This document shows positions 15,741 through 46,918 of a stretch of 48,624 bases of DNA, one piece after another. The notes below the pieces were generated by a model, which was given only the letters and a program-made list of their open reading frames with translations, searched no databases and was not told the DNA's origin. Each line of letters opens with the position of its first letter. The first letter of the stretch is position 1. Source of the DNA: Candidatus Sericytochromatia bacterium. Lineage in GTDB: Bacteria; Cyanobacteriota; Sericytochromatia; S15B-MN24; UBA4093. The stretch is taken from positions 1 to 48,624 of the forward strand of contig JAKFCT010000033.1 of the NCBI GenBank assembly GCA_036676495.1. The letters are read 5' to 3'. The position numbers and the translations under genes are program-made.

Positions 15741-15742
15741 GG

Positions 15743-20501: not shown

Positions 20502-20879
20502 CTACGCTCCGACCAGCTCCTCGTACTGCTTGGCGTCGAGGATCTCGGACGCCTCCGCGGGGTTGCTCGGAGCAATCTTGATGATCCAGCCGTCGCCGTA
20601 CGGATCGTCGTTGATCAAGGACGACTCGTCGTTGAGGCGCTCGTTGACCGCGATCACCTTGCCCGAGAGCGGGGCGTAGAGATCGGAGACGGCCTTGACC
20701 GACTCCACCACGCCGAAGGACTCGCCCTTCGAGAGCTCGCGGCCGACCTCGGGCAGTTCGACGAAGACCACGTCTCCCAGCTGCTCGGCAGCGTAGTCCG
20801 AGATGCCGATGGTGGCTTCTTCACCCGCGATCCGGGCGTACTCGTGCGACTTGGCGTACTTCAGGTCCTGGGGAATCAT
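20502..20879 (-). CDS. gcvH: Glycine cleavage system H protein
   Basis: GISDYAAEQLGDVVFVELP; lipoyl site VESVKAVSD; DPYGDGW. Confidence 0.97.
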   Translation of the reverse strand: MIPQDLKYAKSHEYARIAGEEATIGISDYAAEQLGDVVFVELPEVGRELSKGESFGVVESVKAVSDLYAPLSGKVIAVNERLNDESSLINDDPYGDGWIIKIAPSNPAEASEILDAKQYEELVGA

Positions 20880-20920
20880 GGCGAAGATTTTCCTCCAAAT
20901 AAGGGTGCGATGCGAGGGGA

Positions 20921-22027
<1,107 letters not shown>

Positions 22028-25025: not shown

Positions 25026-25077
25026 CGGGTGATTTCGGACCTTTCTATGTCGAGACGGCGGGGCCGGGTGAGGCACC

Positions 25078-27510: not shown

Positions 27511-28014
27511 TCAATCGGCCCATCCCGGGATTTCCCCGGCACGCCGACGCCCGAAAAAGCGCTTGAGAGCCGCTTGGCAGTCGGCCTCGCAGACTCCGGC
27601 GATCACCTCGGGGCGGTGGTTGAATTCCGGGCGGTCGACCAGGTTGAAGACGGTGCCCGCCGCGCCCAGCTTCGGATCCATGGCCCCGTAGACGAGGCGA
27701 TCCACCCGGGCCTGGACGAGCGCGGGGGCGCACATGGGGCACGGCTCCAGCGTGACGTAAAGGGTGCAGCCGGCGAGGCGCCAGCGCCCGAGCCGTCGCG
27801 CTCCTTCCCGCAGGACGGAGAGTTCGGCATGTCCCAGCGGATCGTGCTGGGTTTCGCGCGTGTTATGCGCGCGCGCCACCACTTCGCCCTGGCAAACCAG
27901 GACGGCGCCGACGGGAATCTCGCCGAGGGCCTCGGCGCGCGCCGCCTCTTCGAGGGCCAGGCGCATGAACGGCTCGTGCCGCCAGGGAACCGGCGGGGAG
28001 GGGAGGGTCGTCAT
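27511..28014 (-). CDS. tadA: tRNA-specific adenosine deaminase
   Basis: GEIPVGAV, HAE, LYVTLEPCPMC, YGAMDPK, FF near the C-terminus. Confidence 0.9.
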   Translation of the reverse strand: MTTLPSPPVPWRHEPFMRLALEEAARAEALGEIPVGAVLVCQGEVVARAHNTRETQHDPLGHAELSVLREGARRLGRWRLAGCTLYVTLEPCPMCAPALVQARVDRLVYGAMDPKLGAAGTVFNLVDRPEFNHRPEVIAGVCEADCQAALKRFFGRRRAGEIPGWAD

Positions 28015-28206
28015 GGGGAAGAATCCTTTAATCACGTCCTTCGGGACTGCTTGCGTAAGGATTATACTCCGGCGGGAATCGCTTCTCCCGATCGTCCGGT
28101 GTCTTTCGGACGTGCCGCAGGCATGACCCATGCGGATCAAGCTGCCGACCGCCGGGATTTCAGGTACCATAGAGGGGCCCCGCCCCCACCATGCAAGGAG
28201 CCAGGC

Positions 28207-28617
28207 ATGTTCCACAATTCCGTCGTCGCATCGATCGCGACCGTCGTCGTCGCCATGGGAGGTTGGATGAGCCCGCGCCAGGAATCGACGTTCACCACCT
28301 ACGGCTATATCGATCAAATCGAGGTCCCGGCGAAAGCCAAGGTTGGCCAGCGCCTCGTCATCACGGTTACGGGGAATATGCCCCAGGCCGGCCTGAACTT
28401 CCGAGGCGTCGAGTTCGTCGAGCATCCCGAGACCAAGACGATTCTGGTCAAGGCGATCGCCACCGGAGAGACGGACAAGGCTTACGCCGACATGCTCTCC
28501 CCCTTCACCGCGACGGGCTCGTTCACTCCCAAGACCCCCGGAGCCTATCAGTTCACGGCCATGCAGCCCAACGGCACCTCGGTCCCGCTGGATAAGCGCC
28601 TCGAGGTTCGGCCGTAG
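28207..28617 (+). CDS. Hypothetical exported beta-sandwich-like protein
   Basis: AAGGAG RBS before ATG 28207; N-terminal hydrophobic stretch; FTPKTPGAY. Confidence 0.65.
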   Translation: MFHNSVVASIATVVVAMGGWMSPRQESTFTTYGYIDQIEVPAKAKVGQRLVITVTGNMPQAGLNFRGVEFVEHPETKTILVKAIATGETDKAYADMLSPFTATGSFTPKTPGAYQFTAMQPNGTSVPLDKRLEVRP

Positions 28618-28726
28618 CCAACGGGATTTTGCCGGCGATTTCACTGACCGGAGAATTTTTCGTCATCTTGACGTAATATTTCTCGGGCATAGGAGGTGCA
28701 GGATCTGGTAGGGTTGTTCCGGGAGG

Positions 28727-31924: not shown

Positions 31925-32389
31925 CTAGCTGCCTTTCGATACAGCCAGCGCCTCGTCCAGGGCCCGCCGCAGGCTCGGCCCCGACGTCGGGCCCACGAAC
32001 CGCTTCACGGGCTGTCCTTGGGCATCCAGGACCACGAACGTGGGCGTGGCGCGCACGCCCAGCCGCGAACCCAGCGCGCGAACGGCCTCGCCTTCCGGGT
32101 AATCCCCCAGGCGATCGATCTGGTAAATGGCCACGCTCGCACGCCCTTCGTAGTCCTTCCGGATGCCCTCGACCACCGGCTTCAACACGACGCAGGACGG
32201 ACAATGGGTCTGGCTGAACTCCACGAGAACCGGCTTGCCGTTCGTCAGGAAGTCGACCGACGCCCCCCCGACGCTCTCGCCCGACCGAGGCAGGAAGTAC
32301 TTGCCGAGCACGAAGGCGATCATCACGACCGCCGCGACGTTGAGCCCGCGCTCCAGCCAGATCTTCCAGCCCGTCTGCTTATCCGCCAT
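31925..32389 (-). CDS. Membrane-anchored thioredoxin family protein
   Basis: N-terminal TM; CPSC motif; ATPTF cis-Pro loop; overlaps the MMPL stop. Confidence 0.8.
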   Translation of the reverse strand: MADKQTGWKIWLERGLNVAAVVMIAFVLGKYFLPRSGESVGGASVDFLTNGKPVLVEFSQTHCPSCVVLKPVVEGIRKDYEGRASVAIYQIDRLGDYPEGEAVRALGSRLGVRATPTFVVLDAQGQPVKRFVGPTSGPSLRRALDEALAVSKGS

Positions 32390-34628
32390 GGCGTCCTCCC
32401 TTTTCGAAGCCGCGCCAGTTCCAGTCCCCGGCGAGCCGCATCAGCGCCGGCACCAGGAGAATCCGAATGATCGTGGCGTCCACCAGCACCGCCACCGCCA
32501 GCCCCAGGCCCAGCATCTGCACGATCACCATCTCGGCCCACGCGAACGACCCGAAGACCACGACCATGATGAGCGCCGCCGAGGTGATGATCCCCGCCGT
32601 CGAGGCCACCCCCTCCACCGTCGCATGGGTATTGTCCCCCGTCGCGTCGTAGACCTCCTTGATCCGATGCAGCAGGAAGACCTCGTAATCCATCGACAGC
32701 CCGAAGATGATGCAGAAGAGCATCAGCGGGATGCTCAGAGGAATCGCCCCCGACGGAGCGTCCAGCCCGAAGATCCCGGCCCCCCAGCCGTACTGGAAGA
32801 CGGCCACGACCGCCCCGTAACCGGCTCCCACCGAGAGCAGGTTCATCAGGACCGCCTTGATCGGCACCAGGACCGAGCGGAAAGCCAGGGCCATCACCCC
32901 CAGGGTCGCCAGCACGACGAAGCCGATCACCCACGGGTAGACCCCGAGCATCGCCGCGTCGAAGTCGTTGTAGAAGGACGCCTGCCCGCCGACCAGCACC
33001 GTGAAGCCCTTGGGAGCCTTGGTCTCCAGCTCCTTGGCGAGCCGCTTCGTCTCCTCGAAGTCCACCTCGTCCTTGAGGGTCAGGTACATGTAGGTCGTGC
33101 GGCGATCGCGGCTCAGGAAGAGATCCCCCAGCAAGGGGTACTGCGCCATGGCTGCGTCCAGGTTCCGGTACAGCATGAAATACTCGGTGGCCCCCAGGTC
33201 CTTTCGAAGATTGACGGGACCCGCCACCTCGGCCACCCGCGGGTCTGACGCGAGCTCCCGGGAGTACGCCATGAGCGCCGGCAAGGTCTTGAGACTCAGG
33301 GCGTCCTGGTCGGTCTTCAAGATCAAGTGAACGGGCGCGATCACGCCGCCCTTGTTCATGGCCATCAGCGCGTCGTACCCCTGCTGGTACTCCAGGCGCT
33401 CCGGCAGCCACCGTCCTGTCGGGAAACCGAGCTTGATGCTGGCCGCGGGCCACGCCAGCGCCACTAAAAGGACCAACGCCGTGAGCCCAAACCGTACCGG
33501 CCGCTGCATGATCCGCTGGGCCCACCCCCGCCAGCGGTCCTGCTGGCTCGCGAGGGTCGGCAGTTTCAGCCAGCGGGGCGAGTCCACCCGCGGCCCGAGC
33601 ATGCCGAGGATCGCCGGAAGCAGCGTCAGGGCCAGGGTCACCGAGCCGATCACCACCACGAAGCCCCCCCAGCCGATGGAGCGCGTGTCCAGGATGGGAG
33701 TGGCCACCAGGCCCGCGAAGCCAATCAGCACCGTCAATCCCGAGAACAAGACGGCGACGCCCGCCGTCGAGACCGTCTCTTCGACCGCCTGAGCGGTATC
33801 CAGCCCCCGCCCGAGCGCTTCACGGAAGCGGTTGACCATCAGAAGCGAGTAATCGATGCCCATGGCGAGCCCCAGCATGGTCGAGACGCTCTGGGCAAAC
33901 GCCGTGAGCTCGATGTTGCCCGCCACCAGATACAGCAGCCCCTGGGTCAGCACGATGGCGCATGCCCCCATGACCAACGGCACGCCCGCAGCCATCAGGG
34001 TGCCGAAGGCCAAGAGCAGCACCAGAATCGTCAGCGGCATGCTCCGGGCTTCCGAGCGGCTGGTGTCCTCGGTGCTGAACTGGTTGATGTCGTAAGTCAG
34101 CGCTCCGCGCCCGGTGACGTGCCAGGTGAAGCTCGGATCCCGCTCTCGGGCCGCCGTCCCCGCGGCCTGGACGGCCTCGCGGATCGCGGGAACGGCCTTC
34201 TCGGCGCCCCGCACGTCCCGGGCCGCGAGCCCCACGAAGGCGAAGGTCTCGCGGCGATCGTCCGACAGCAAGCGGACATCGTCCGCTTCCGGATAGGCCA
34301 GGACCTCGGAGACTTCTGCATCCGCCTTCAGCCGGGTCACGGCCTCGCCCAGAAACGCCTTGAACGCGGGATCGTCCACGGTCTCGCGCTCGCTCCGGGC
34401 CACCAGCACCAGCACCTGGGAGTACGGGTTCTTGAACTCGCTGGCGAGGATGGCTTCGACCTTTTCCGACTGGCTCCCCGCGATGCTGCCGGTCCCACCC
34501 GCCAGCACCTCGGTGATCCGCGAGGCGCCCAGGGCCGCGACGACCACGGCGACGAGCCAGAAGCCGATCACTACGAGCCGGTACCGATACAGCCAGGTGC
34601 CCAACTGGGCGAAACGACCTTTGAGCAT
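32379..34628 (-). CDS. MMPL/RND family transporter
   Basis: GIDYSLLMVNRFRE, FGLSMDYEVFLL.RIKE, DATIIR..LVPALM; two large extracytoplasmic loops. Confidence 0.92.
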   Translation of the reverse strand: MLKGRFAQLGTWLYRYRLVVIGFWLVAVVVAALGASRITEVLAGGTGSIAGSQSEKVEAILASEFKNPYSQVLVLVARSERETVDDPAFKAFLGEAVTRLKADAEVSEVLAYPEADDVRLLSDDRRETFAFVGLAARDVRGAEKAVPAIREAVQAAGTAARERDPSFTWHVTGRGALTYDINQFSTEDTSRSEARSMPLTILVLLLAFGTLMAAGVPLVMGACAIVLTQGLLYLVAGNIELTAFAQSVSTMLGLAMGIDYSLLMVNRFREALGRGLDTAQAVEETVSTAGVAVLFSGLTVLIGFAGLVATPILDTRSIGWGGFVVVIGSVTLALTLLPAILGMLGPRVDSPRWLKLPTLASQQDRWRGWAQRIMQRPVRFGLTALVLLVALAWPAASIKLGFPTGRWLPERLEYQQGYDALMAMNKGGVIAPVHLILKTDQDALSLKTLPALMAYSRELASDPRVAEVAGPVNLRKDLGATEYFMLYRNLDAAMAQYPLLGDLFLSRDRRTTYMYLTLKDEVDFEETKRLAKELETKAPKGFTVLVGGQASFYNDFDAAMLGVYPWVIGFVVLATLGVMALAFRSVLVPIKAVLMNLLSVGAGYGAVVAVFQYGWGAGIFGLDAPSGAIPLSIPLMLFCIIFGLSMDYEVFLLHRIKEVYDATGDNTHATVEGVASTAGIITSAALIMVVVFGSFAWAEMVIVQMLGLGLAVAVLVDATIIRILLVPALMRLAGDWNWRGFEKGGRHGG

Positions 34629-34639
34629 GGTTGCTTCTC

Positions 34640-36304
34640 CTATAGCCAGCGGCTCAAGTGCCGTTTGAGCTTTGCGTAGTCGATCTTGACGTTGTGGCGG
34701 GGGTCCACGGGCATCCTGCGCAGGAAGACGATGCGGTCCACCGGAATGCCGTTTAGGGCCATGTGCTCATGCAGCGCTTCTTCCCAGGTTCGCCGCTGCC
34801 GGCGATCGCCCCAGTCCTGCGGGGAAACGGCCAGAACGACCTGATCCCCGTGGTTCAGGAGCGCGGCCTTGCCCACGAAGCTGAGCTGGTGAACGATGGC
34901 CTCCGCCTGGATCGGGTAGAGCGTGCGATCGCCGTGCCGGATCAGGTTGTTGACCCGCCCGACCAGCCAGATCCGCCCCTGCGGGTCGAGGTAGCCCACG
35001 TCTCCCAGGCGGTGCCAGAGCGTGCCGTCGCGATCGCGGATCTTGTTCTCGCGCACGGCCTCGGGATTGCGGTAGTAGTCCTTGCCGACGTGATCACCGG
35101 TGACGACCAGCTCTCCGATGTCTCCGGCGGGCAGTTCCAGCGCGTCGAGCCCTTCCGGGCCCACCTCGACCGGGCCGTCCACGATCCGGATCACCTTGAG
35201 CCGGATGCCATGGGCCGGCAGGCCCACGCAGTTGCCATGGCCCGCACGCGTGAGCGCACCGGTCTCTTCGCAGACCTCCGTCGCCGAGATGAGCGCGACG
35301 GGCTCCGCCTCGGTGGAGCCGTAGCCGATGAAGGCCTCGCCATTCGGCATCACGGGGCGCAGCGTCTCCAGCAAGCCCGGAGGCACCGGGCCTCCCCCCG
35401 TGAAGAGGGTCCGTAAGGTCGACAGCGTCCGGCCTTGGGCTTGGCAGTAGTCGGCGATGGGCTTCCAGTAGGCGGGAGAGCCCACGGCCGTCGTGATTCC
35501 ATGGTCCTCGATCTGCTTCACGATCACCCGGGGATCGACCTCCGAGGGCTTGGAAGACGTCATCAGCGGCAGCACGCTGGTCACGCCCGCCGCCAGGTTG
35601 TTGAGCACGAAGATCGGCAAGGTCGTCAGGTCCACGTCCCCCTCCCGCAGCCCCATCTCCCGCGACAGGGCATGGTGCTGGGCCATCAGGAAGCCGTGGG
35701 TCCGGTTGGAGCCCTTGGGAATGCCCGTGCTTCCCGTGGTAAACGTGACGAGGGCCGTCGTCTCCGGGGAGACCTCCTGGGTGCTCACCTCCGGGTGCCG
35801 CGATTCCAGGAGGCGCTCGAGCTGGATCTCCCCGAAGCGCGCCGGCCCTCGAGCGGTCAGGCGCATGGGGATCGGCGACAGGACCCCGCTCAGGCGCCCC
35901 AGCAGCTGGATCATGGGGATCCCGGCAAAGGCCTTGGGCTCGGTGAGGGCGATACAGCGCTTGATCTGAGGCAAGCCCACCCAGGGGTCGATGAAGACGA
36001 TGATCACGGCCATCTTGAGGAGGGCCAGCAGCAGGGTGTACAGCTCGAGGCTCATGGGGATCATGACGACCACGCGATCGCCGGGCTGGAGGCCGCGCGC
36101 GGAGAGGGCGGCGGCCAGCCGGTTCACCCGCTCGTTCAGCTCTCCGAAGCGAACGGTTTCGTAGTCGAGGGCGATTTCGCGGCGATCCGCGCTGCGCCGG
36201 CGCCGGGGGAAGACCACGGCGTTTCGGTCGGGCGTCGTCGCGGCCCAGTGGTCGAGGTAGCCGATGACGTTCGAGTGCGTGAACATGCGCTCCATCGGGA
36301 TCAC
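34640..36304 (-). CDS. OleC-like adenylate-forming enzyme
   Basis: FTTGSTGIPKG, YGSTEAEPV, WHRLGD and the OleC-type C-terminal PVDPRHNVKID. Confidence 0.8.
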   Translation of the reverse strand: MIPMERMFTHSNVIGYLDHWAATTPDRNAVVFPRRRRSADRREIALDYETVRFGELNERVNRLAAALSARGLQPGDRVVVMIPMSLELYTLLLALLKMAVIIVFIDPWVGLPQIKRCIALTEPKAFAGIPMIQLLGRLSGVLSPIPMRLTARGPARFGEIQLERLLESRHPEVSTQEVSPETTALVTFTTGSTGIPKGSNRTHGFLMAQHHALSREMGLREGDVDLTTLPIFVLNNLAAGVTSVLPLMTSSKPSEVDPRVIVKQIEDHGITTAVGSPAYWKPIADYCQAQGRTLSTLRTLFTGGGPVPPGLLETLRPVMPNGEAFIGYGSTEAEPVALISATEVCEETGALTRAGHGNCVGLPAHGIRLKVIRIVDGPVEVGPEGLDALELPAGDIGELVVTGDHVGKDYYRNPEAVRENKIRDRDGTLWHRLGDVGYLDPQGRIWLVGRVNNLIRHGDRTLYPIQAEAIVHQLSFVGKAALLNHGDQVVLAVSPQDWGDRRQRRTWEEALHEHMALNGIPVDRIVFLRRMPVDPRHNVKIDYAKLKRHLSRWL

Positions 36305-37401
36305 GCCTCCCGCTCGTAGAGGGCGTAGCTTTTGAGGGTTTGGCCTCCGAAGCGCTGGGACATCCGCAAGCTGGTGTTGTCCTCCCGCATCAGGGCGTGG
36401 ACGGTCTTGGCGTATCCCTTCCGGGCGGCGGCGTCGTGCATGAGGTGGCAGAGCGCGAGCGCCAGCGAGCCGTTGCGGTGGCTGGGAAGCACGCCGAAGG
36501 TCTTGAGGAGGGCGGCGGGCGTCTCATGGCGCTTCATCAGGAAGCGGATCTTGGCCCAGAGGCTCTGGCTGCCGTTCATGGCTCGGATGGCCGGGGCGTA
36601 GTCCGGGAGCCCGAAGACGAAGCCCACGGGCGTATCCCCCTGGAAAAGGAAGTGGCAGAGGTCGGGATCCATGATGCCGCGCATCCCCGTGTAGAGGCTT
36701 TGGAACTCCGAAAACTCGACGGGGCGCCACATCCAGGAGCCCGCGAAGATGGCGCTCGAGAGGTCGTACATGAGCTTCAGCTCGGCGTCGAAGCGGGTGC
36801 GGTCGAAGGGGCGCGCGCGGTAGCCCGCGGCCATGGCGCGCGCATGATGCCGCTGTGTTTGGGCGGCGAAGTCCGCGGAGTCGACGATCGACGAGGTGTA
36901 GCTGCAGACCGGGCGGAAGCCGAAGCGCTCCCAGTGTTCGGGGTAGTGCCGGGGGTTGTAGGGCTCCAGGAAGAAGGCCCCGTGCTCGAAGCCCTCGGTC
37001 ATGAAGCGATAGGGGAAGTAGGTGCTGGTGTTGAGGGGACCTCGGATTGTCGTGACCGCGCGCTCGCGCAGCCAGTCGACGGCCGAGGCGAGGACGGCTT
37101 CGGAGGCGTCGTAGCGATCCGCGGCCTCGAAGTAGCCGATAAACCCGAGGCCGGGCTCGTAGCGGCGGTTGATCATGGCCGAGCAGCGCGCGAGCGGGAC
37201 CTTTCCCTCGTAGGCGAGGAAGTGGACCCAGTCTCCGTGGCGGGTGAACGGGGCCTCGGGGGCCAGCTGTGCGCGCATGGCGCTCCGAAACGGGGGGATC
37301 CAGGCGGGATCCCCTCGGTGGAGCCGGTAGGGCAGGGCGAGGAAGGCCTCGCGGAAGTCCTCGCCCTGCCCGTGGGCTTGCGCGCTGCTGACGACCTTCA
37401 T
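36301..37401 (-). CDS. GNAT-fold acyltransferase, YghO/bacterial ceramide synthase-like
   Basis: True start is MKVVSS at 37401 (TGATG coupling); GFIGYFE, IRGPLN, EPYNPRHY...FGF, GFVFGLPD. Confidence 0.65.
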   Translation of the reverse strand: MKVVSSAQAHGQGEDFREAFLALPYRLHRGDPAWIPPFRSAMRAQLAPEAPFTRHGDWVHFLAYEGKVPLARCSAMINRRYEPGLGFIGYFEAADRYDASEAVLASAVDWLRERAVTTIRGPLNTSTYFPYRFMTEGFEHGAFFLEPYNPRHYPEHWERFGFRPVCSYTSSIVDSADFAAQTQRHHARAMAAGYRARPFDRTRFDAELKLMYDLSSAIFAGSWMWRPVEFSEFQSLYTGMRGIMDPDLCHFLFQGDTPVGFVFGLPDYAPAIRAMNGSQSLWAKIRFLMKRHETPAALLKTFGVLPSHRNGSLALALCHLMHDAAARKGYAKTVHALMREDNTSLRMSQRFGGQTLKSYALYEREA

Positions 37402-40085
37402 CAGGGCTCGGGGTTGAGGCGGACGATGCCTTGGCGGGCGTCCATCTCGACGAGCTGACCGTCCTTGACGCGCTTGGTCAGGTTCTTGATGCCCACGATG
37501 GTGGGCAAGCCCAGCTCGCGGGCGACGATCGCCGAGTGGCTGAGGATGCTCCCGCGCTCGATCAGGAGGCCCGAGGCCGCCGGGTAAAGCGGGACCCAGC
37601 CGGGATCGGTGCGTTCGGCGACCAGGATCTGGCCGTTGAGGCTCATGTCGTCTTCCGGAGAGCGGATCACCCGGACGGTGTTCTTGACGGTTCCGGGGCA
37701 GCAGCTGATGCCCTTGAGGAGGTTCGGGTCGTCGGGCTCGTTCGAGTGATCGCCCTCGAAGTGGTTGGCGTGGTGGACGGTTCCGAACGTTTTGAAGCGG
37801 TCGTCGACGTCCTCCTGGCGGTAGCGGGCGAACTCGGCCTTGCGGAGGCTGGCAAGGCCCTTGAGGTCCGTGCAGGTCGCCGTGCCCTGGATGTAGCCCC
37901 AGATCTCCTCGAGGTTGAGGTAGAAGATGTCCTGCGAGTCGTCGAGGACGTCCCAACTCGCGAAGGTGGCGCCGATGGACTGGAACATGTCGCGGAGGAT
38001 GCCGAAGATCTTGGTGCGCGCGAAGCGCATGTTCTCGCGGTTCTTGACGTGGCGGCGCGCGTTGAAGACCACCCAGCGGAAGAGCGCGTGGCGCAGGGGG
38101 TTGCCGCCCAGCTTCTCCTTGACGAGTTTTTCGGCCAGCTCGCGGATCTTCCGCTCGTTGGCCTCCATCGCGGCGATGTCCAGCTTCTCCATCTTGAGGT
38201 AGTTCTTGACCATGGCGAAGACGAAGCTGGGGTCTTCCTTGAGGTTCTTCTCCTCGAGCTTCAGCTCGTTCATGCAGCGGTAGCCGTACTTGTCGAGGAA
38301 GTCCTGGACCTGCGCGCGCATCTCGGGGAAGCGCTCCTCGCCGCGCAGCCGATCCCAGATCTCGGAGTCGGGGGTCGTCTCGAAGAAGGCCTTGAGTTCG
38401 GGGTGGAGCTTGGCCGAGAGGGCCATGCGCATGATGGCCTTGGTGGGCTCGGTGGATTCGATCTCGCCCTCGCCGCAGAGGAGGTCGTTTTGCAGGGAGC
38501 CGGATTCGTCGCCGCACCAGGCGACGCAGAGCTTCTTGAGGACCCCGTAGAAGACCATGGCCGAGATGTCGGTGAGGATGGGGGCTTGCCACTTCCAGAG
38601 CAGGCGTTGCTCGAGGTCGTGGTAGCAGACCTTGATCTCGTCGGGGCGCATGGCCTTCCAGTCGAAGGTCTTGTACTCGGCGTAGGCCTGGTTGAAGTTG
38701 ACCTGGAAGCCGGCCACCGTGCGATCGATCTTGCGGTAGTGGTCGAGCATCCGGAAGGCGACCATCAGGAGCTTGGGCAGCTCGCGGTAGTCCTTGGCCT
38801 CCTTGACGTGCTCGCCCTTCTCCTTGACGCCCATCATCTGCTCCATGAAGCCCTTGTTGTAGTTGAAGCCGGGCAGCAGGGAGGTCATCTGGTACCAGTT
38901 GCCGAGGTTGTAGAAGACGCGGCCGCGGACGAGGCCGAGCAGGTTGCGGAAGGTCTGCTCGTTCTGGCGGATCACGTCGTCGGAGATGCCCAGGGCGCGG
39001 CAGACCTGGTTGTAGACGATGTTGTAGGCCTGGGAGGCGAACGAGAAGGTCAGGGGAGAGGTCACGCCCGAGTAGGATTCGGTGATGTTGGAGTTATCCC
39101 AGACGATCTCGCGGCCGATCGTGGTCTGGGGGACCTTCAGGTTGGTGATGGGGCGGGATTGCAGGATGAAGAGCCGGCCGTCGCTCAGGGCCCATTCGAT
39201 ATCCTGCGGGGCGCCGTAATGCGCCTCGATGGCCGCTCCGAGCCGTGCGAGCGCTTGGGCCTGCGCGGGAGAGAGGCATGCGACTTCCTGGAGTTCGGCG
39301 GGCACGGGGACGTCGCGGGTGCCCTGGCCGCGTTCGGCGTCGAAGGCGACCTGCATGGGCTTGGGTACCAGCTCGGCCTTGAGCTCCCACGTGCCCTTGG
39401 AGACCTTGAAGGAGTCGGTGTCGAGGGCGCCGGAGACGATGCCCTCTCCGGCGCCGTAGGTGCCGTTGATGACGATGACGTCGCGATCGCCCGTGAGGGG
39501 ATCGGCGGTGAACATGACGCCCGAGACGTCGGGGGAGACCATCTCCTGGATCACGACGGCAATCTCGATGGCCAGGGCATCCGCGCCCTTCATATGCCGG
39601 TAACTGAGGGCGCGCTCGGAATACGCCGAGGCCCAGCAGGCGCGGACGGAAGTGAGGAGGGCGTCGGGGCCCTTCACGAAGAGGAAGGAGTCCATCTGGC
39701 CGGCGAACGAGTCCTTGCTGCCGTCCTCACCGAGGGCGGAGGAGCGCACGGCGACGAACGCGTCGCCGAAGGCCGCGGCGTCGCGAAGGAGGGCGGCGCG
39801 CATCGCCTCGGAGATCGGGTGGGAGGTGATCAGGCCGTGGATGGTCTGGCTGGCGGTCCGGACCGCTTCCGGGCGGGTGAAGTCCAGCTGGGAGAGCAGC
39901 TTGCGGACTTTTTCCTGGAGGTCCGAGTCGCGCATGAAGGCGCGGAAGGTCGCGACGGGAACGGTGACGAAGCGGGGGACGGGGAAGCCCGCGTCAGAGA
40001 GGATCCGGAGGTTGGAGGCCTTGCCGCCGAGTTCGCGGTCAGTCTGGGCGTGAGCCGCTTTGGCGGCCTGTGGCGAGAGGGTCAT
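37401..40085 (-). CDS. PEP-utiliser-type phosphotransferase, RPH/PigC architecture
   Basis: N-terminal ATP-grasp (GGKA, VRSSALGED..SFAG, PQDIEW, LQSRPIT); central ~450-aa domain; C-terminal swivel domain TDPGW..GSILSHSAIVARELG; no PEP-binding barrel. Confidence 0.88.
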   Translation of the reverse strand: MTLSPQAAKAAHAQTDRELGGKASNLRILSDAGFPVPRFVTVPVATFRAFMRDSDLQEKVRKLLSQLDFTRPEAVRTASQTIHGLITSHPISEAMRAALLRDAAAFGDAFVAVRSSALGEDGSKDSFAGQMDSFLFVKGPDALLTSVRACWASAYSERALSYRHMKGADALAIEIAVVIQEMVSPDVSGVMFTADPLTGDRDVIVINGTYGAGEGIVSGALDTDSFKVSKGTWELKAELVPKPMQVAFDAERGQGTRDVPVPAELQEVACLSPAQAQALARLGAAIEAHYGAPQDIEWALSDGRLFILQSRPITNLKVPQTTIGREIVWDNSNITESYSGVTSPLTFSFASQAYNIVYNQVCRALGISDDVIRQNEQTFRNLLGLVRGRVFYNLGNWYQMTSLLPGFNYNKGFMEQMMGVKEKGEHVKEAKDYRELPKLLMVAFRMLDHYRKIDRTVAGFQVNFNQAYAEYKTFDWKAMRPDEIKVCYHDLEQRLLWKWQAPILTDISAMVFYGVLKKLCVAWCGDESGSLQNDLLCGEGEIESTEPTKAIMRMALSAKLHPELKAFFETTPDSEIWDRLRGEERFPEMRAQVQDFLDKYGYRCMNELKLEEKNLKEDPSFVFAMVKNYLKMEKLDIAAMEANERKIRELAEKLVKEKLGGNPLRHALFRWVVFNARRHVKNRENMRFARTKIFGILRDMFQSIGATFASWDVLDDSQDIFYLNLEEIWGYIQGTATCTDLKGLASLRKAEFARYRQEDVDDRFKTFGTVHHANHFEGDHSNEPDDPNLLKGISCCPGTVKNTVRVIRSPEDDMSLNGQILVAERTDPGWVPLYPAASGLLIERGSILSHSAIVARELGLPTIVGIKNLTKRVKDGQLVEMDARQGIVRLNPEP

Positions 40086-40114
40086 GCGGGTCTCCTATAT
40101 CCCAGCCGCAGGGG

Positions 40115-41062
40115 CTAGAAGGTCAGGCGGAAGCCTTGGCCGGCCAGCGAGCCGAGCGCGACGGTGAGGTAGCTGGTGAGCATCATGATGGCGGCCCAGT
40201 CGCCGAGCTTGCGGGCGCCCTTGGCGGTGGGCTTGCGCCAGAAGCGGACGAAGCCGATTTCCGTGAGGGTCAAGCCGAGGACGAAGAGCCCGAAGACGTA
40301 CGGGGGGAAGCGAAGCACGAACGCGAGGGCCAAGGCGCAAACGGCTCCCGCCATCAAGATCGTGAAGGCGAGGGCCGAGGCGGCCTCGTAGCCGAAATGC
40401 TTGGAGTAGGTATCGACCTGGTCATGCTCTTCTTCGGGAAAGCGAATCTTGCGGGACATCTCCCAGCCGAGACCCGTGCCGGCCCCCATGGCGAGTTGCA
40501 ACCAGAACAGGCCGCTCCAGCCGCCTGCAGTGGGGAAGGCGACCAGCGTGTAAACGTAAAGACAGATCAGCGGAGTGATGAGTTGATGTGTCAATGCGTA
40601 GATAACGAGGTGCTTGTTCAGCCACTCGCCGACGAAGAACTCCTTGAACATCAACAAGGCGAAGCCAATGACAACCAGACATGCTGCCAAGGCATGCAGG
40701 CCGACCAGGGCGTTCAGGGCCAGCATGACGGCTACGACCCCGATCCCGATGATCTTCAGCTCGGAGAGCGGCATGATGCCCTGGGAGACGATCCGGTCGG
40801 GGTGGCCGACGAGGTCCTTGTCGTAGTCCTTGAATTCGTCGAGCACGCGCAGGAAGAAGAGCGCGAAGAGGACGGTGACCATGCCGGCGATCGCCGGCAT
40901 CCCGAAGCTCGACGTCCCGGGCCGCAGCAGCTTCTCGGAGAGCAGGTAGCTGCTGAAGAAGAAGGCGATGACGACCACCAGGTGGGTGGCAAGCGGGAAA
41001 CGCTCGTCGAGGTAGAGCTTGAAGCGCTTCAAGAAGGGCAAGTTTACCGCGTGGGTGGCCAT
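40115..41062 (-). CDS. UbiA-like prenyltransferase family membrane protein
   Basis: About eight TM helices; DEFKDYDKDLVGHPDR Asp-rich motif; GAGGAG RBS before ATG 41062. Confidence 0.7.
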   Translation of the reverse strand: MATHAVNLPFLKRFKLYLDERFPLATHLVVVIAFFFSSYLLSEKLLRPGTSSFGMPAIAGMVTVLFALFFLRVLDEFKDYDKDLVGHPDRIVSQGIMPLSELKIIGIGVVAVMLALNALVGLHALAACLVVIGFALLMFKEFFVGEWLNKHLVIYALTHQLITPLICLYVYTLVAFPTAGGWSGLFWLQLAMGAGTGLGWEMSRKIRFPEEEHDQVDTYSKHFGYEAASALAFTILMAGAVCALALAFVLRFPPYVFGLFVLGLTLTEIGFVRFWRKPTAKGARKLGDWAAIMMLTSYLTVALGSLAGQGFRLTF

Positions 41063-41194
41063 GAATTCTCCTCTCTGGACGTCACCTCCTAGTTTTACCC
41101 GCATGACGGGCCGAATGAAAGCCCGAGTTCAACATGCTAAGGGAGGCTTCCGTCGTGGTACAAGGCTCCTGGACTGAGAAAGCGAGACGCCCGA

Positions 41195-42352
41195 GTGACT
41201 GATACCTTGCCCACGAACGCGCCCCGGCCCCCCCAGAGCGTCACCCGCACCCTCCGCTCGGAGGTTGCCGACCGCCCCTTCTTCCGCAGCATCGGCTATA
41301 GCAACTGCTGGGAGGATCCGGAAATCCTGCAAGAGGCCCTGCAAGTCGGCCCCGGGGACGTCTGCTTCTCGATCACCTCGGGCGGCTGCAACACCCTCGA
41401 TCTCTTGCGGCATGATCCGGCCCGGGTCGTCGCCCTCGACTTCAACCCCAGCCAGAACCATCTCTTGCGCCTCAAGATCGCCGCGTTCAAGGCCCTCGAC
41501 CACGGCGAGATGCTCGAACTCCTGGGCATCCGCCCCTCGAAACGCCGCGGGGCGCTCTTCCAGAAGCTCCGCCCCGCGCTTTCCGACGAGGCTCAGGAAT
41601 TTTGGGACGCGAATCAGCGGTTGATCGAGCGCGGCGTGGTGAGCTCAGGCCGCCTGGAGCGCTACTTGCTGGCCTTCGGCAAGCTCATGCGCCTCTTCTA
41701 CGGACGAAAGCGGATCATGCGCTTCTTCGCGTGCGAGTCGCTGGAGCAGCAGCGGGCCTACTACGACAAGGACATCGACGGGCCGCTCTGGCGGATGATG
41801 TTCGACGTCTTCTTCAGCCGGACCGTGATGACCCGCACCAAGGACAAGGAGCACTTCCGGCTGGTCGATTTCCGGGACTTCGGGAAGATCTTCCGCGCCC
41901 GCGCCGAGCACGCCTTCACCCGGATTCCCTCCCGGAGCAACTACTTCCTGGCGCTGATCCTGCTGGGGCGTTACCTCGACGAGGACGCGCTTCCGGCGTA
42001 CCTGGCGCGCGAGAACTTCGACACCATGCGGGCGCGGGTCGACCGCGTGGAGATCGTGACCGGCGAGATCGAGCAATACTTGCTCGGCGTGCCCGACGGC
42101 ATGTTCACCCGCTTCAACGTCTCCAACCTTTTCGACTGGATTCAGACGCCGATCTTCATCCGCCTGCACGAGGAAATCGTGCGCACGGGGCGCAACGGGG
42201 CGCGCATGGCCAACTGGAACACGCTACTGGCGCGGGCCATTCCCTCCGAGGTGCCTCAAATCGAGCGCTTATCGGAACGCGGCTCCGAGCTGCTCGCGCG
42301 CGACCGCGCCTTTCTTTATGCGAACTTCGAGGTAGGCGTCATCCGAAAGTAG
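41195..42352 (+). CDS. BtaA/DUF3419 family SAM-dependent 3-amino-3-carboxypropyltransferase-like protein
   Basis: YSNCWEDP, ITSGGCN, DFNPSQNHLLRLK, NYF, SNLFDW, DRAFLY. Confidence 0.82.
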   Translation: MTDTLPTNAPRPPQSVTRTLRSEVADRPFFRSIGYSNCWEDPEILQEALQVGPGDVCFSITSGGCNTLDLLRHDPARVVALDFNPSQNHLLRLKIAAFKALDHGEMLELLGIRPSKRRGALFQKLRPALSDEAQEFWDANQRLIERGVVSSGRLERYLLAFGKLMRLFYGRKRIMRFFACESLEQQRAYYDKDIDGPLWRMMFDVFFSRTVMTRTKDKEHFRLVDFRDFGKIFRARAEHAFTRIPSRSNYFLALILLGRYLDEDALPAYLARENFDTMRARVDRVEIVTGEIEQYLLGVPDGMFTRFNVSNLFDWIQTPIFIRLHEEIVRTGRNGARMANWNTLLARAIPSEVPQIERLSERGSELLARDRAFLYANFEVGVIRK

Positions 42353-43264
42353 CCGTCCCGTGATCACCCGCAAGGCCGAGGGGACGACGCTCAGTTCGAG
42401 CGAACGGGTCTCGGCCAGGACTTCTCCGTCGCCGATGAAGACGCGGGGCTCGGGAGAGGTAATGGTCAGCGCGCGGCCCTCGAGCATGAGCACGTCCTTG
42501 CGGCGGGTATGCTTGCCTTTGAGGCTCATCAGGATCACCGTGATGATCGATTGCAGGCGGTTGCGCTCGCGCATGAGGCACATGCCGAGCTTGCCGTCGG
42601 TCACGCGGGCGTCGGGGTAGGACGTGACGACCTTGCCGATGGACGGCTGGTTATGCACGAAGAGGGCCACTGTCCGCATGGTGCCGATTTCCCGCCCGTC
42701 CAGGGAGACGGTGAAGTCGCTGAGGATCTTGCGGGAGAAGAGCAGCAGCAGGAAGCTGTAGAGCACGTAAACCAGGCTTCCCAGCGTCTTGACGGCCTTG
42801 CGGACCCCGCCGTCGCGGGCCTTCAGGGTGTTGACGCCCACGGCGACGTCGCTGAGGACTCCCAGGCCGCCCGCGGTGGCGAAGTAGCGGTCGTTGAGGC
42901 GAATCAGGTCGATGCGGGCGGTGGCGCCGCGCCGGATCATGCGGCAGGCCTGGCGCGGGTTGCGGGGAATGCCGAGGTGGGTGGCAAGATCGTTGGCGGT
43001 GCCGGCGGGCACGACGCCCAGGGGCACGTCGGAATGCGCCAGCTGATTGAGGACGGCGTTGACGGTGCCGTCGCCGCCGACCACGATCACGAGGTCCGTG
43101 CCGTCATGCGTGGCGGCCTGGGCGGCGCGGCTCAGGGCGTCGTAGGATTCGGGGATGACGACGGAGAGCTCGCAGTCCGCGAACTCCCGGCGAATGGCGT
43201 CCAGCCTCCGGCGATCGCAGCCGTTGCGAGCCGCGCGATTGACGAGCACCGTGATCTTGCGCAA
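42269..43264 (-). CDS. Diacylglycerol/sphingosine kinase family lipid kinase
   Basis: VGGDGTVN, PAGTANDLA..LGIP, GDGE; its 3' end overlaps the DUF3419 gene. Confidence 0.85.
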   Translation of the reverse strand: MRKITVLVNRAARNGCDRRRLDAIRREFADCELSVVIPESYDALSRAAQAATHDGTDLVIVVGGDGTVNAVLNQLAHSDVPLGVVPAGTANDLATHLGIPRNPRQACRMIRRGATARIDLIRLNDRYFATAGGLGVLSDVAVGVNTLKARDGGVRKAVKTLGSLVYVLYSFLLLLFSRKILSDFTVSLDGREIGTMRTVALFVHNQPSIGKVVTSYPDARVTDGKLGMCLMRERNRLQSIITVILMSLKGKHTRRKDVLMLEGRALTITSPEPRVFIGDGEVLAETRSLELSVVPSALRVITGRLLSDDAYLEVRIKKGAVAREQLGAAFR

Positions 43265-44293: not shown

Positions 44294-45052
44294 ATGGAAA
44301 CGGTGCCCACGGGGCTCTTCAGGCAGCTTACCCTGACGATCACGGGGAACCCCGTCTTGCCTTCCCAGCTCTCCACCCGCGTGGCGGCGGTTCCCGGATC
44401 CTCGGCCGTCCGCCCGGTCGCCGACGAGCGTCCGGTCCCCGTCACCCCCGAGATGCTGGCCCGCCGTCAAGGTTACCTCAAGGCCTTCGAACTCCTCAGC
44501 GTCGTCTACGAGGCGCTGCGCAGCGCCGCCACCAGCCGCGAAGCCCCTTCTGTCCGGCTCGCCATCTTCATCGACGGCGCCTCCCCGGCCATGAACGCTC
44601 TCCATGCCCTCTTGATGGGCTCGCTCGCCGGCACCCCCTTCTCCCGCTCCGTCCGCGCCAAGCTGGCCCGCGGGATTCACGCCCGAGAGCGCGACCACGC
44701 CAGCCTTTGGGACCTGGGCATCCGCATGGATGACAACCTGTCCCTGTCAGGGCCGGTCATGCCGCCCATGGACGCGAGCCGGCTCGCCGGCACCCTTCAC
44801 GAAGCTTGCCATGGCCCGCGCGCCCTGGCGTCGATCCTGATCGAACTTGCGGGGGAAGCATGGGGGAACGTCCTGAGCCCCGAGCATCCCGAAGTCGGCA
44901 CGGCCTGGGCCGCTTTCGCCCGCGCCCGCTGGACGGAGGCCGAACTGCGCAACCGGTCGCGCCTCTTCAGCACCCTGTCCCGCCGGCTGCTCAGCTCCCG
45001 CACCCGCCTCGATCGCCAAGAGCGCATGCTCCGTCTTCCTCTGGACTCATGA
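44294..45052 (+). CDS. Hypothetical protein, weakly FliD C-terminal-like
   Basis: GAGGAGG RBS; SLWDLGIRMD..LSL segment and a terminal coiled coil; overlaps the CDF start. Confidence 0.55.
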   Translation: METVPTGLFRQLTLTITGNPVLPSQLSTRVAAVPGSSAVRPVADERPVPVTPEMLARRQGYLKAFELLSVVYEALRSAATSREAPSVRLAIFIDGASPAMNALHALLMGSLAGTPFSRSVRAKLARGIHARERDHASLWDLGIRMDDNLSLSGPVMPPMDASRLAGTLHEACHGPRALASILIELAGEAWGNVLSPEHPEVGTAWAAFARARWTEAELRNRSRLFSTLSRRLLSSRTRLDRQERMLRLPLDS

Positions 45053-46014
45053 GCCCGGACGTCCCCGCAGAACCCCTCGATGGGCTCGCGTCGCGCCCCC
45101 TCGAAGTCCGCAAAGTCCTCTGGATCGTCCTCGGCCTCAACCTGGCCGTCGCCGCCGTCAAGGCCCTCGTCGGCTTCTGGACCGGCTCGCTGGGCGTGGT
45201 GGGCGACGCCCTTCACTCGACCACCGACGGCCTCTCCAATATCGTCGGGCTCGTCGGCATTCACTACGCCATCTCCCCGCCCGACCGGGAGCATCCTTAC
45301 GGCCATGCCAAGTTCGAGACCCTGGCGGGCTTCGGCATCGCGGGCTTCCTGCTGATCACCGGCTTCGAGCTGCTCCAGCAGGCCATTCAGCGCCTCCTTC
45401 ACCCGGGAACCCACGTCATCGACGCCAGTCTCCCCGCCATCCTCCTGCTGGCCAGCACCTTCCTGGTCAACATCGGGGTCACCATGTACGAGGCCCGGGA
45501 GGCCAAACGGCTCGACAGCGATCTCCTCGCCGCCGATGCCTCGCACACCCGTAGCGACCTGCTGGTCACGCTCAGCCTGATTGGCGGCATCATCCTGGCC
45601 AACCAGGGCCTGCCCTGGCTGGATCCCGTCCTCACGCTCGGCATCGCCGGAGTGATCCTCTTCAGCGGCCTGCGCATCATCCGGGTGAACATGCCGACCC
45701 TGGTCGACGAGGCCTACCTCGACCCCGACGAGATTTGCCGGGTCGCCCTGGCGTGCTCCGGCGTGCTGGCTTGCCGGACGGTCCGGACGCGCGGGAGGCC
45801 CGGGATGGCCTTCACCGAGCTCACCATCGACGTGCCCTCGGATCTTTCCGTCGCCGAGGCCCATCACATCACCGATCAACTCGAAAACGACCTGATCGCG
45901 CGCTTCGGCCCCATGGAGATCGTGATCCACGTCGAGCCCGCCGACCCGAAAGGGTCCCGTCCGGAGGACGGAACCCTTTGCGTGGAGCCGGATGCGCGCG
46001 ACACATCGTATTAA
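45049..46014 (+). CDS. Cation diffusion facilitator family transporter
   Basis: DALHSTTD, PPDREHPYGHAKFE, ADASHTRSD, EAHHI, IHVEP. Confidence 0.92.
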   Translation: MSPDVPAEPLDGLASRPLEVRKVLWIVLGLNLAVAAVKALVGFWTGSLGVVGDALHSTTDGLSNIVGLVGIHYAISPPDREHPYGHAKFETLAGFGIAGFLLITGFELLQQAIQRLLHPGTHVIDASLPAILLLASTFLVNIGVTMYEAREAKRLDSDLLAADASHTRSDLLVTLSLIGGIILANQGLPWLDPVLTLGIAGVILFSGLRIIRVNMPTLVDEAYLDPDEICRVALACSGVLACRTVRTRGRPGMAFTELTIDVPSDLSVAEAHHITDQLENDLIARFGPMEIVIHVEPADPKGSRPEDGTLCVEPDARDTSY

Positions 46015-46456: not shown

Positions 46457-46918
46457 ATGCGCCGCGTTCTGATTGCCATGGAAGGGGCTTCCTGCTCCGA
46501 TGATGCCATCCAGCAATTTGCCAGCCTGTTCACTCCCGGCGACCTGGCGGTTTTCATTCTGGCGGTCATCCCTCCGGTCAGTTACCCCGTTCAGGTCTCG
46601 CCCGGAGCGACGCTGTACCATTGGCAATCGGAAGAGGCGTTGGTTTCCCTCGATCGCGCCACCTCCTCCCTCGCGGCCGCCGGCTTCACCGCCTTCGGGC
46701 TCATCCGCATCGGAGAACCCGTCGAGAGCATCGTGCGGGCCGCCCAAGACCTCGACTCCGACCTGATCGTGCTGGGCACGCAAGGTCGAAAAGGCGTCAA
46801 GCGCTTGGTTCGCAGCAGCGTGGCCGAGTCGGTTGCCGCTAAAGCCTCTTGCGACGTGATGGTCTACCCCTTCGATGGGGAAGATGCCCATGGCAGCCCG
46901 GATCATCCGGCCGCCTGA
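46457..46918 (+). CDS. Universal stress protein (UspA family)
   Basis: MRRVLIAMEG, GEPVESIV, DLIVLGTQGR, SVAESVAAKASCDVMV; AGGAG RBS. Confidence 0.88.
   Translation: MRRVLIAMEGASCSDDAIQQFASLFTPGDLAVFILAVIPPVSYPVQVSPGATLYHWQSEEALVSLDRATSSLAAAGFTAFGLIRIGEPVESIVRAAQDLDSDLIVLGTQGRKGVKRLVRSSVAESVAAKASCDVMVYPFDGEDAHGSPDHPAA

Follow-up and report, generated by a model that had tools for sequence, protein, structure and literature searches.

The window analysed here is a stretch of 48,624 nucleotides (nt) on contig C33 of the Sericytochromatia assembly G000 (4.1 Mb in 106 contigs, 91.9% complete, 6.7% contamination), and this report concerns a cluster of eight neighbouring genes within it. Six of them form a minus-strand operon that encodes, in order, a UbiA-like protein, an RPH-type phosphotransferase, a tandem GNAT-like protein, an adenylate-forming ligase, an MMPL-family transporter and a thioredoxin-like (Trx-like) protein. 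The operon is divergent from a gene for a DUF3419/BtaA-like protein, which is followed by a lipid kinase gene (Table 1). The genes were assigned from a list of open reading frames (ORFs) combined with Pfam and NCBIfam scans, and all eight genes named in a preliminary description of this DNA were found where it had placed them.

Table 1. Genes and intervals of the cluster and its flank, with positions in the window
Feature	Position	Strand	Remarks
Trx-like protein	31925-32389	-	PF13098 44.3 bits; last gene of the operon
MMPL-family RND transporter	32379-34628	-	PF03176 261.5 bits
Adenylate-forming AMP-binding ligase	34640-36304	-	NF006754/PRK09274 487.1 vs cut-off 478
Tandem GNAT-like protein, 366 amino acids	36301-37401	-	Anchor of the cassette searches
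RPH-type phosphotransferase (PPDK_N + PEP-utilizers), 894 amino acids	37401-40085	-	NF004881 935.8 vs cut-off 883
UbiA-like protein	40115-41104	-	PF01040 26.1 bits, under cut-off 34.2
Divergent intergenic region, UbiA-led operon/DUF3419	41105-41194		90 nt with the longest UbiA ORF
DUF3419/BtaA-like protein	41195-42352	+	PF11899 252.8 bits
YegS/Rv2252/BmrU lipid kinase	42269-43264	-	TIGR00147 137.8 vs cut-off 118.65
Conserved hypothetical protein, 562 amino acids	43364-45052	+	Divergent from the kinase; possible accessory

Gaps and overlaps of at most 29 nt had been described for the operon, and the measured spacings agree: -11 for Trx/MMPL, +11 for MMPL/ligase, -4 for ligase/GNAT (GTGA), -1 for GNAT/phosphotransferase (TGATG) and +29 for phosphotransferase/UbiA. 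The operon junctions are translationally coupled. The 132-nt divergent region of the preliminary description is obtained when the UbiA-like protein starts at Met15 (41062), and it shrinks to 90 nt with the longest ORF. The later start fits the AlphaFold model of the protein, in which residues 1-17 have a predicted local distance difference test score (pLDDT) below 50, and 41062 may therefore be the true start. A promoter scan of the divergent region, which was uninformative, returned zero sigma-70-like sites, and terminator-like sites (8 against 6.5 expected) were not above shuffled controls. The DUF3419 and kinase genes are convergent and, as had been noted, overlap, here by 84 nt at their 3' ends. 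This overlap lies within the kinase tail, past the TIGR00147 match (residues 1-302 of 331), and it recurs in two other loci, L006 and L009, with 69 and 78 nt as judged by the ends of tblastn matches. Pfam scans of the window ORFs found no families of the polyketide synthase (PKS) or nonribosomal peptide synthetase (NRPS), OleA/B/D, serine palmitoyltransferase or small-molecule methyltransferase type; pig/red genes were likewise not found in the window, and the sole methylase among the scanned ORFs is a DNA N6/N4 methylase (3540-4409). The earlier remark that the usual partners, including a BtaB-type family, are missing from the window thus holds.

The distribution of these genes in other genomes was followed from the GNAT-like protein, which was chosen as the search anchor because it has no family name and few close relatives. 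A homologue search returned 57 proteins, which carry the source names 'hypothetical', 'GNAT superfamily' and, once, 'dATP pyrophosphohydrolase'. The locus scan was built on an alignment of the 15 closer GNAT sequences (A2) and covered one genome per species, yielding 44 loci, each with flanks of up to 10 kb. Neighbours were detected by tblastn (E <=1e-6, coverage >=40%) with the window and accessory proteins as queries, and Pfam matches were added. Many of the 44 loci end at contig ends, and 25 have at least 7 kb on both sides. The titles of the source records name Sericytochromatia, Thermoanaerobaculia, Holophagales, Acidobacteriota, Myxococcales, Bradymonadales, Persicimonas, Bdellovibrionales, Planctomycetota, Verrucomicrobia, Lentisphaeria, Victivallis, Spirochaetes, Zixibacteria, Ignavibacterium, Hydrogenedens, Lentimicrobiaceae, Trueperaceae, Fundicoccus, and Alpha-, Gamma- and 'Delta'-proteobacteria, among them five Photorhabdus species and a Marinobacteraceae isolate.

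Among the 44 loci, a UbiA-like gene is present in 35, a phosphotransferase in 32 and a ligase in 27; in the 25 loci with long flanks the corresponding counts are 22, 21 and 17. Head-group genes follow with DUF3419 in 16 loci, a cytidine diphosphate (CDP)-alcohol transferase in 10, a CarS-like gene in 9 and a phosphatidylserine decarboxylase (PSD) in 7. The remaining counts are 14 for 3-hydroxy-3-methylglutaryl-coenzyme A (HMG-CoA) reductase, 12 for MMPL/RND transporters, 9 for the lipid kinase, 8 for a PolK-like membrane protein, 3 for a FAR-type reductase and 2 for thioredoxin. The order of the genes varies between UbiA-phosphotransferase-GNAT-ligase and GNAT-ligase-UbiA-phosphotransferase, and adjacent pairs are kept, both in the core (GNAT>ligase 25, UbiA>phosphotransferase 19, phosphotransferase>GNAT 18, ligase>UbiA 11) and among the accessories (DUF3419>PolK-like 8, CDP-alcohol transferase>CarS 7, GNAT>PSD 6). 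The lipid genes found near cassettes comprise CarS-like, CDP-OH_P_transf, PSD, fatty acid hydroxylase, TMEM164 and LolA-like genes.

The preliminary description had made its proposal depend on co-occurrence in other genomes, and the UbiA-like, phosphotransferase, GNAT and ligase genes do stand together in many phyla, in shuffled order. The cluster is thereby confirmed as one lineage's version of a modular gene set that is found in well over ten bacterial phyla. Chance neighbourhood of unrelated genes in one genome is scarcely credible: high-GC genomes do pack genes tightly, and synteny of the thioredoxin gene and of the ArsC-family and GTPase genes downstream does not reach beyond the family, but the recurrence of the core genes across many phyla, reordered and with conserved pairs and fusions, refutes this explanation for the core.

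In the class to which the window belongs, a GNAT homologue (E <=1e-20) was found in 20 of 47 genomes, G000 included. By family, it is present in 8 of the 9 other genomes of the window's own family and in 8 of 8 in a second one, whereas two more families, with 8 and 6 genomes, have none. A search of the GNAT profile against 1.84 billion representative sequences gave 4161 clusters at E <=1e-30, which indicates a large family. Cultured carriers include Photorhabdus, Brevibacillus laterosporus, Roseinatronobacter and Fundicoccus, and the Roseinatronobacter cassette (L062) lies on a 137-kb plasmid whose record gives only generic product names. Genome G052, also from Sericytochromatia, keeps its orthologues of the DUF3419, UbiA, phosphotransferase and ligase genes together in a DUF3419/ligase-type cassette (L056), with a tetratricopeptide repeat gene in the expected place of the GNAT gene and no MMPL/Trx pair behind. 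A second, paralogous cassette of the PSD/CDP-alcohol transferase/CdsA/HMG-CoA reductase/MMPL type (L013, contig C23) lies ~30 kb away in the same genome.

This patchy occurrence in the class, the plasmid location and the presence in the metabolite-rich Photorhabdus and Brevibacillus would also suit a diffusible secondary metabolite or signal, for example an exported prenylated N-acyl amino acid, in place of a structural membrane lipid. A dedicated exporter and the relationship of the phosphotransferase to the condensing enzymes PigC and RedH point in the same direction. However, the phosphotransferase misses the PigC and RedH models widely (390.1 against 1300 and 419.1 against 1350), no PKS, NRPS or terpene cyclase was found in the examined loci, and the accessories make up a classic phospholipid head-group set of CarS-like protein, CDP-alcohol transferase and PSD, so that a diffusible product is considered improbable.

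The loci differ from one another in an orderly way. DUF3419 and CDP-alcohol transferase never share one of the 44 loci, and neither do the ligase and PSD, each of which stands directly after the GNAT gene; in L038 this slot is filled by a pyridoxal phosphate-dependent decarboxylase. The lipid kinase, the PolK-like protein and the CarS-like protein likewise exclude one another, with no locus holding two of the three. The PolK-like gene is found with DUF3419 in 8 of 8 cases, the CarS-like gene with CDP-alcohol transferase in 9 of 9, and the kinase with DUF3419 in 6 of 9. All four combinations of ligase or PSD with DUF3419 or CDP-alcohol transferase occur, and the PSD types fall at two or more separate positions on the GNAT tree. 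The PolK-like protein was considered as a polyprenol kinase, which could not be confirmed: its alignment (A4) gave no Pfam match at E below about 1e-3 and no PDB match, nor did it have profile similarity to CarS-like proteins (hhalign probability 0.3).

Natural fusions join several of the cassette functions. An 828-amino-acid ORF in L026 (11077-13563), from a low-GC Bdellovibrionales metagenome-assembled genome (MAG), combines an AMP-binding domain (11-375) with a UbiA domain (573-799). The tandem GNAT is fused to a PRK09274-type ligase in protein P0107 (931 amino acids) and, in P0112 (780 amino acids), to an alpha-oxoamine synthase that resembles serine palmitoyltransferase but, at 470 bits, stays under the cut-off of 640. 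Two further forms are a doubled GNAT (P0060) and a GNAT joined to a PilZ domain (P0124). In L036 the CDP-alcohol transferase and CarS matches lie in one frame with no stop between them. The high-GC loci L021, L023 and L027 also seemed to hold ligase-UbiA fusions, but these were rejected as open-frame artefacts, their two matches being in different frames. Homologue searches for longer proteins gave no fused UbiA-like or GNAT forms, which is weak evidence, as the fusions above came by other routes.

The UbiA-like protein adopts, according to its model, a UbiA fold with the first Asp-rich motif, and is assigned to the intramembrane transferases of the UbiA superfamily. The window protein misses the Pfam cut-off (Table 1), while the Photorhabdus homologue in L039 passes it with a PF01040 score of 59.3 and the L026 fusion scores 32.5. 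A profile of 27 sequences (A3) searched against the PDB matched the digeranylgeranylglyceryl phosphate (DGGGP) synthase 6m31 with an E-value of 2.8e-8 and chlorophyll synthase with 4e-3. The AlphaFold model has a pLDDT of 91.4, and its top Foldseek matches are the DGGGP synthase structures 7bpu/6m31 with TM-scores of 0.61-0.71, followed by ApUbiA, a membrane phosphoribosyltransferase, AfUbiA and UBIAD1; the listed structures (7bpu/6m31, 4od4, 8j8j, 4tq4, 8djk) all have a probability of 1.0. The nearest solved relative is thus the archaeal DGGGP synthase, by profile and by fold. The invariant residues are R86, D89, K92, D93, D97, E215, R218, K219, E226 and Y233. They include the first Asp-rich motif, D89-x2-K92-D93-x3-D97, and the second metal-binding motif is replaced by E215/R218/K219/E226/Y233. 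Geranylgeranylglyceryl phosphate synthase (GGGPS/PcrB, PF01884) had no match in the cassette-bearing genomes G000, G001, G002 and G003, and G055 gave only a short partial match of 25 bits, just above the cut-off. The window also encodes a second UbiA member of the MenA type, which is unrelated to the cassette; it belongs to a run of menaquinone genes (5-3346, plus strand) that consists of this UbiA/MenA-type gene (PF01040 121.5 bits, truncated where the window begins), a gene for a MenC-type member of the enolase superfamily and a MenE-like AMP-binding ligase gene.

The phosphotransferase has two Pfam domains, PF01326 (296.6 bits, residues 18-317) and PF00391 (81.3 bits, residues 818-886), and no third one. 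Its layout comprises an ATP-grasp domain, a divergent central domain and a His swivel domain, without the phosphoenolpyruvate (PEP)/pyruvate TIM barrel. Of 36 homologues, at least 90% retain His850, which lies within LSHSAIVARE. The family model that the protein passes, NF004881, carries the NCBI name 'phosphoenolpyruvate synthase', whereas the PEP synthase model TIGR01418 is missed (322.6 against 739.75), and identification as RPH, PigC, RedH or a true PEP synthase was rejected on the NCBIfam cut-offs. RPH is the best-characterised enzyme of this architecture and the best solved match is 5fbs/5hv1, taken here to be the Listeria rifampin phosphotransferase. With GNATs and RND pumps being common resistance functions, this raises the reading of the locus as a drug inactivation and efflux island, in which the RPH-type enzyme and the GNAT would modify an antibiotic and the MMPL protein would pump it out. 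It is very improbable: the RPH models are missed (NF041857 380.1 against 999; NF000283 302 against 1700), the likeness to 5fbs/5hv1 covers the ATP-grasp and His domains only and leaves the central substrate domain unmatched, and the constant partners are the UbiA-like protein and lipid head-group enzymes, which have no resistance role.

The GNAT-like protein gives a single-sequence Pfam score of 18, under the cut-off of 20.7, and its assignment comes from structure prediction. The AlphaFold2 model (pLDDT 94.4, predicted TM-score 0.90) has the tandem GNATs 5kf1, 7q3a, 2wpx and MshD (2c27/1ozp) as its top Foldseek matches, all with a probability of 1.0. By name, these matches include a C. acetobutylicum glucosamine N-acetyltransferase (5kf1, E 5.7e-14), MAB_4324, a clavulanate tandem GNAT and mycothiol synthase, and FemX and MprF-type domains rank lower. 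In a profile search against the PDB, GNAT chains match the C-terminal CoA-binding region at ~295-355, and R309, in the sequence RNGSLA at residue 309, is invariant in alignment A2. The model and the profile point to a protein made of two GNAT folds, of which the C-terminal one holds the CoA site.

The neighbouring ligase is assigned, narrowly above the cut-off, to the PRK09274 family by its profile score. Across 22 homologues its P-loop (residue 187) and K540, the A10 lysine, do not vary, and neither do T189, G191, K197, Y328-G-S-T-E332, D435 and R450. It is not a true OleC: both NCBIfam OleC models are missed (325.5 against 900 and 276.7 against 850), and oleA/B/D are not in the window.

The DUF3419 protein is a putative S-adenosylmethionine (AdoMet) 3-amino-3-carboxypropyl transferase of the head-group module, as judged by its PF11899 match over residues 29-378 (cut-off 28.2). 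It shares 33-36% identity with cassette-type copies from the complete cassettes of Brevibacillus laterosporus and the Roseinatronobacter plasmid, and 27-29% with those of Sinorhizobium. The stretch SITSGGCN at residue 59, which is conserved and rich in glycine, is presumably the AdoMet site. The kinase has PF00781 (98.2) and PF19279 (58.9) matches, and kinase genes accompany the cassette in Sericytochromatia, two unclassified MAGs, Zixibacteria, Bdellovibrionales, Trueperaceae and Ignavibacterium. Its occurrence in 9 of 44 loci under at least five taxon labels, never together with either of its two slot alternatives, supports the kinase as a cassette member. A DUF3419 gene is also found in a different setting, where it merely flanks the cly cluster (PMC7923214). 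A cardiolipin-synthase-like gene of the phospholipase D (PLD) type lies 3.6 kb from the kinase (46875-48458, plus strand); as a shared accessory it was discarded, being only 22% identical to the PLD beside the L015 cassette, and it is not counted.

The MMPL protein is presumed to be the exporter or flippase of the product. It exceeds the PF03176 cut-off of 20.5; identification as MmpL3 (278.9 against 1400) or HpnN (64.8 against 751.85) was rejected on the equivalog cut-offs, and that of BstA was missed too. In other loci (L024, L026, L047), MacB/FtsX pairs of ATP-binding cassette (ABC) transporters flank the cassette. The window holds an operon of the same transporter families at 12562-17217 (minus strand), ~15 kb from the cassette, with the order TetR, LolA-like, FtsX/MacB, FtsX/MacB, ABC ATPase; such genes stand directly beside the cassette in L024, L026 and L047 (MacB/ABC) and in L040 (LolA-like). 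The Trx-like protein features an N-terminal transmembrane helix and a CPSC motif; it passes the PF13098 cut-off of 27 and misses those of TrxA (TIGR01068, 34.4 against 96.8) and TrxC. From these features it appears to be a membrane-anchored thioredoxin-like protein distinct from TrxA, and it is a lineage-specific add-on, as it stands beside the cassette solely in L006 and L009, the two closest Sericytochromatia loci. The preliminary description had called membership of the kinase and the thioredoxin less certain, which stands for the thioredoxin and no longer for the kinase.

HMG-CoA reductase is a frequent but dispensable member of the cassette. The cassette reductases form a clade of their own against the mevalonate-operon copies (support 1.0, branch 1.86), and the L006 copy is 23% identical to the mevalonate-pathway enzyme of the window's genome. 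Twelve of the 14 reductase loci also have the ligase, and the FAR-type reductase and HMG-CoA reductase never occur together. In six gammaproteobacterial loci (L039, L041-L045) the reductase is fused to an APH/EcKL-type kinase (861-933 amino acids), and the fusion gene sits between the UbiA-like and phosphotransferase genes. Of five carriers compared, three (Photorhabdus, the Marinobacteraceae genome and the L015 genome) have the cassette copy as their only reductase, with no MVD-like gene above the cut-off, and the remaining two have both kinds. A simple role in isoprenoid supply was rejected, since the cassette copies are a separate clade and are present without MVD. The genome of the window has a single reductase, located in an operon on contig C28 with the order HMG-CoA reductase, GHMP-family kinase, MVD-like decarboxylase, GHMP-family kinase; in G054, its closest relative, a single full-length reductase was found, and it clusters with the mevalonate-operon copies. 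The 562-amino-acid protein encoded beside the lipid kinase has a homologue in L006 (1081-2682; 57% identical over 93% of the length), which lies 8 nt downstream of the cassette-type reductase. The window protein has no Pfam or NCBIfam match, and its best Atlas score of 0.75 is under the usable level. The 3' end of its ORF overlaps a cation-efflux (CDF) ORF (44806-46014) by 247 nt, and one of the two start calls is therefore probably wrong.

These reductase data carry an alternative in which the cassette makes its own 'prenyl' donor by activating an alcohol instead of drawing on the isoprenoid pool. The ligase would form a CoA thioester, the cassette-type HMG-CoA reductase or a FAR-type reductase would convert it to a primary alcohol, possibly mevalonate, a kinase and the RPH-type enzyme would convert this to a mono- or diphosphate, and the UbiA-like protein would transfer the group so activated. 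The separate clade, the carriers with the cassette copy alone, the position of the reductase-kinase fusion, the company of the ligase, the mutual exclusion of the two reductase types and the natural ligase-UbiA fusion would all find a place in such a module. Against it, a cassette-type reductase is missing from both the window and its closest relative, which otherwise retain the cassette, and seven loci swap the ligase for PSD, an enzyme that requires an alpha-amino acid. UbiA enzymes do not usually take a non-allylic diphosphate as donor. Additionally, the GNAT and head-group modules would be left unexplained, and this alternative is given a low probability.

Taken together, it is highly probable that the genes form one functional cassette for a lipid-like product. 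The preferred reading, which is favoured with some reserve, is that Sericytochromatia have here their own version of a modular, multi-phylum cassette for making and exporting a specialised membrane lipid, by a scheme whose steps are drawn from family chemistry together with gene linkage. In this scheme, the DGGGP synthase-like UbiA enzyme would attach a polyprenyl group, or another group activated as a diphosphate, to a membrane acceptor that is hydroxylated or phosphorylated, and the RPH-type enzyme would use ATP to phosphorylate, via phospho-His850, a hydroxyl of the acceptor, donor or lipid. The YegS-type kinase would phosphorylate a lipid hydroxyl, a slot that a CarS-like or PolK-like membrane protein would fill in other lineages. 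DUF3419 would take the 3-amino-3-carboxypropyl group from AdoMet and place it on a lipid hydroxyl, so forming a head group of the homoserine type; in other lineages a CDP-alcohol transferase would take its place, probably adding serine. The tandem GNAT would then N-acylate the head-group amine from acyl-CoA, with the PRK09274 ligase activating the carboxylic acid involved. Finally, the MMPL pump would move the product from the inner leaflet or membrane, and the membrane-anchored CPSC thioredoxin may act as a lineage-specific helper. The preliminary idea of a prenylated, N-acylated, aminocarboxypropylated and exported lipid gains support from the co-occurrence and from the lipid head-group accessories, the product and the order of steps being deduced. 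The more detailed structure sketched here for the product, an N-acylated lipid with an amino-acid head and an isoprenoid anchor, is a tentative suggestion with the balance somewhat against it.

Several points weigh against the preferred reading. The counts are conditional on the GNAT, through which the loci were found, and include related genomes, which do not count as independent. The phosphotransferase is missing from 4 of the 25 loci with long flanks and the UbiA-like gene from 3, and in G052 the GNAT orthologue, 64% identical, lies outside the cluster, alone on another contig (L008). The UbiA-like protein may not be a prenyltransferase, given the missed Pfam cut-off and the replaced second motif, and the lack of a GGGPS/PcrB match in the four carriers excludes a straight archaeal-type pathway. 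The mutual exclusion of ligase and PSD could mean that the ligase acts on a head-group carboxylate and not on a fatty acid. A BtaA-type enzyme needs a free hydroxyl, and the company of the kinase is left unexplained, as is the dedicated HMG-CoA reductase, of which the window's genome has no cassette-type copy.

In its furthest extension, which is rather unlikely, the cassette would specify a so-far-unseen lipid class in well over ten phyla, with Photorhabdus, Brevibacillus and the non-photosynthetic relatives of cyanobacteria among its makers. Such a lipid would have a non-glycerolipid ether/isoprenoid anchor, made without GGGP synthase by the DGGGP synthase-like UbiA enzyme and the phosphohistidine phosphotransferase. 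Its amino-acid head would be added by one of two interchangeable routes, AdoMet aminocarboxypropylation or CDP-activation and serine, and then N-acylated or decarboxylated, and the divergent HMG-CoA reductase would supply a mevalonate-derived block outside the classical pathway. If the preferred reading is correct, the cassette represents an unrecognised, widespread route to membrane or envelope lipids that combines betaine-lipid chemistry with enzymes nearest to the archaeal ether-lipid makers. It would bear on the sharpness of the bacterial/archaeal 'lipid divide' and on the producers of unassigned environmental lipids. It would also give a role to the misnamed families NF004881 ('phosphoenolpyruvate synthase'), the PRK09274 ligases and the tandem-GNAT family, to the non-BtaA DUF3419 proteins, and to the separate HMG-CoA reductase clade of bacteria that lack a mevalonate pathway. 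Some carriers are in culture and genetically tractable, which opens the question to direct testing.

Other genes of the window are unrelated to the cluster. These are a 377-amino-acid protein with a C-terminal MafB19-like/cytidine deaminase domain (27511-28644, minus strand) and an EF-hand calcium-binding protein (24513-25076, minus strand). The window also encodes, at 17415-22027 (minus strand), gcvP, gcvH and gcvT followed by Sua5; the Pfam match of gcvP covers only the C-terminal half of its 912-amino-acid ORF.

No characterised pathway was found that matches the cluster: the RPH, PigC, RedH, OleC, MmpL3 and HpnN cut-offs are missed, and full-text literature searches found no paper on this gene combination, in keeping with its first description. 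Parts of it nevertheless resemble known systems. The BtaA/BtaB pathway of Rhodobacter and rhizobia, which makes diacylglyceryl trimethylhomoserine (DGTS), shares the DUF3419/PF11899 enzyme, which presumably adds an AdoMet-derived 3-amino-3-carboxypropyl group to a lipid hydroxyl and would result in a phosphorus-free amino-acid head group. However, no BtaB-type methyltransferase is present in the window ORFs scanned, the partner for the amine is the tandem GNAT, so that N-acylation would replace N-methylation, and the cassette adds UbiA-like, phosphotransferase and ligase genes that are unneeded for DGTS synthesis. The archaeal ether-phospholipid pathway shares the closeness of the UbiA-like protein to DGGGP synthase and, in other versions of the cassette, the CarS-like protein, CDP-alcohol transferase and PSD. 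In its classical form it was rejected, as no PcrB was found in the four carriers; the second Asp-rich motif of the UbiA-like protein is replaced, the window has DUF3419 and a soluble lipid kinase instead of CarS or CDP-alcohol transferase, and the archaeal pathway has no counterpart of the RPH-type enzyme, the tandem GNAT or the ligase.

RPH and PigC/RedH share with the phosphotransferase the three-part layout without a PEP-binding barrel, the conserved catalytic His and probably the transfer from ATP through phospho-His to a substrate oxygen. They differ in the missed cut-offs, in the central domain, which is unmatched in solved RPH, and in the lipid-synthesis context of the cassette. After PRK09274, OleC of the OleABCD system gives the closest named relatives of the ligase, which share adenylate formation on a lipidic carboxylate, whereas the ligase family of the cassette occurs beside, or fused with, the tandem GNAT and the UbiA-like protein and the window has no oleA/B/D. 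The mycobacterial FadD-MmpL loci and the hopanoid transporter HpnN differ in that the cassette has no PKS and that its other versions use different RND or MacB-type transporters; what they share with it is an adenylating enzyme beside an MMPL/RND pump, whose cargo is the lipid that the neighbouring genes produce.

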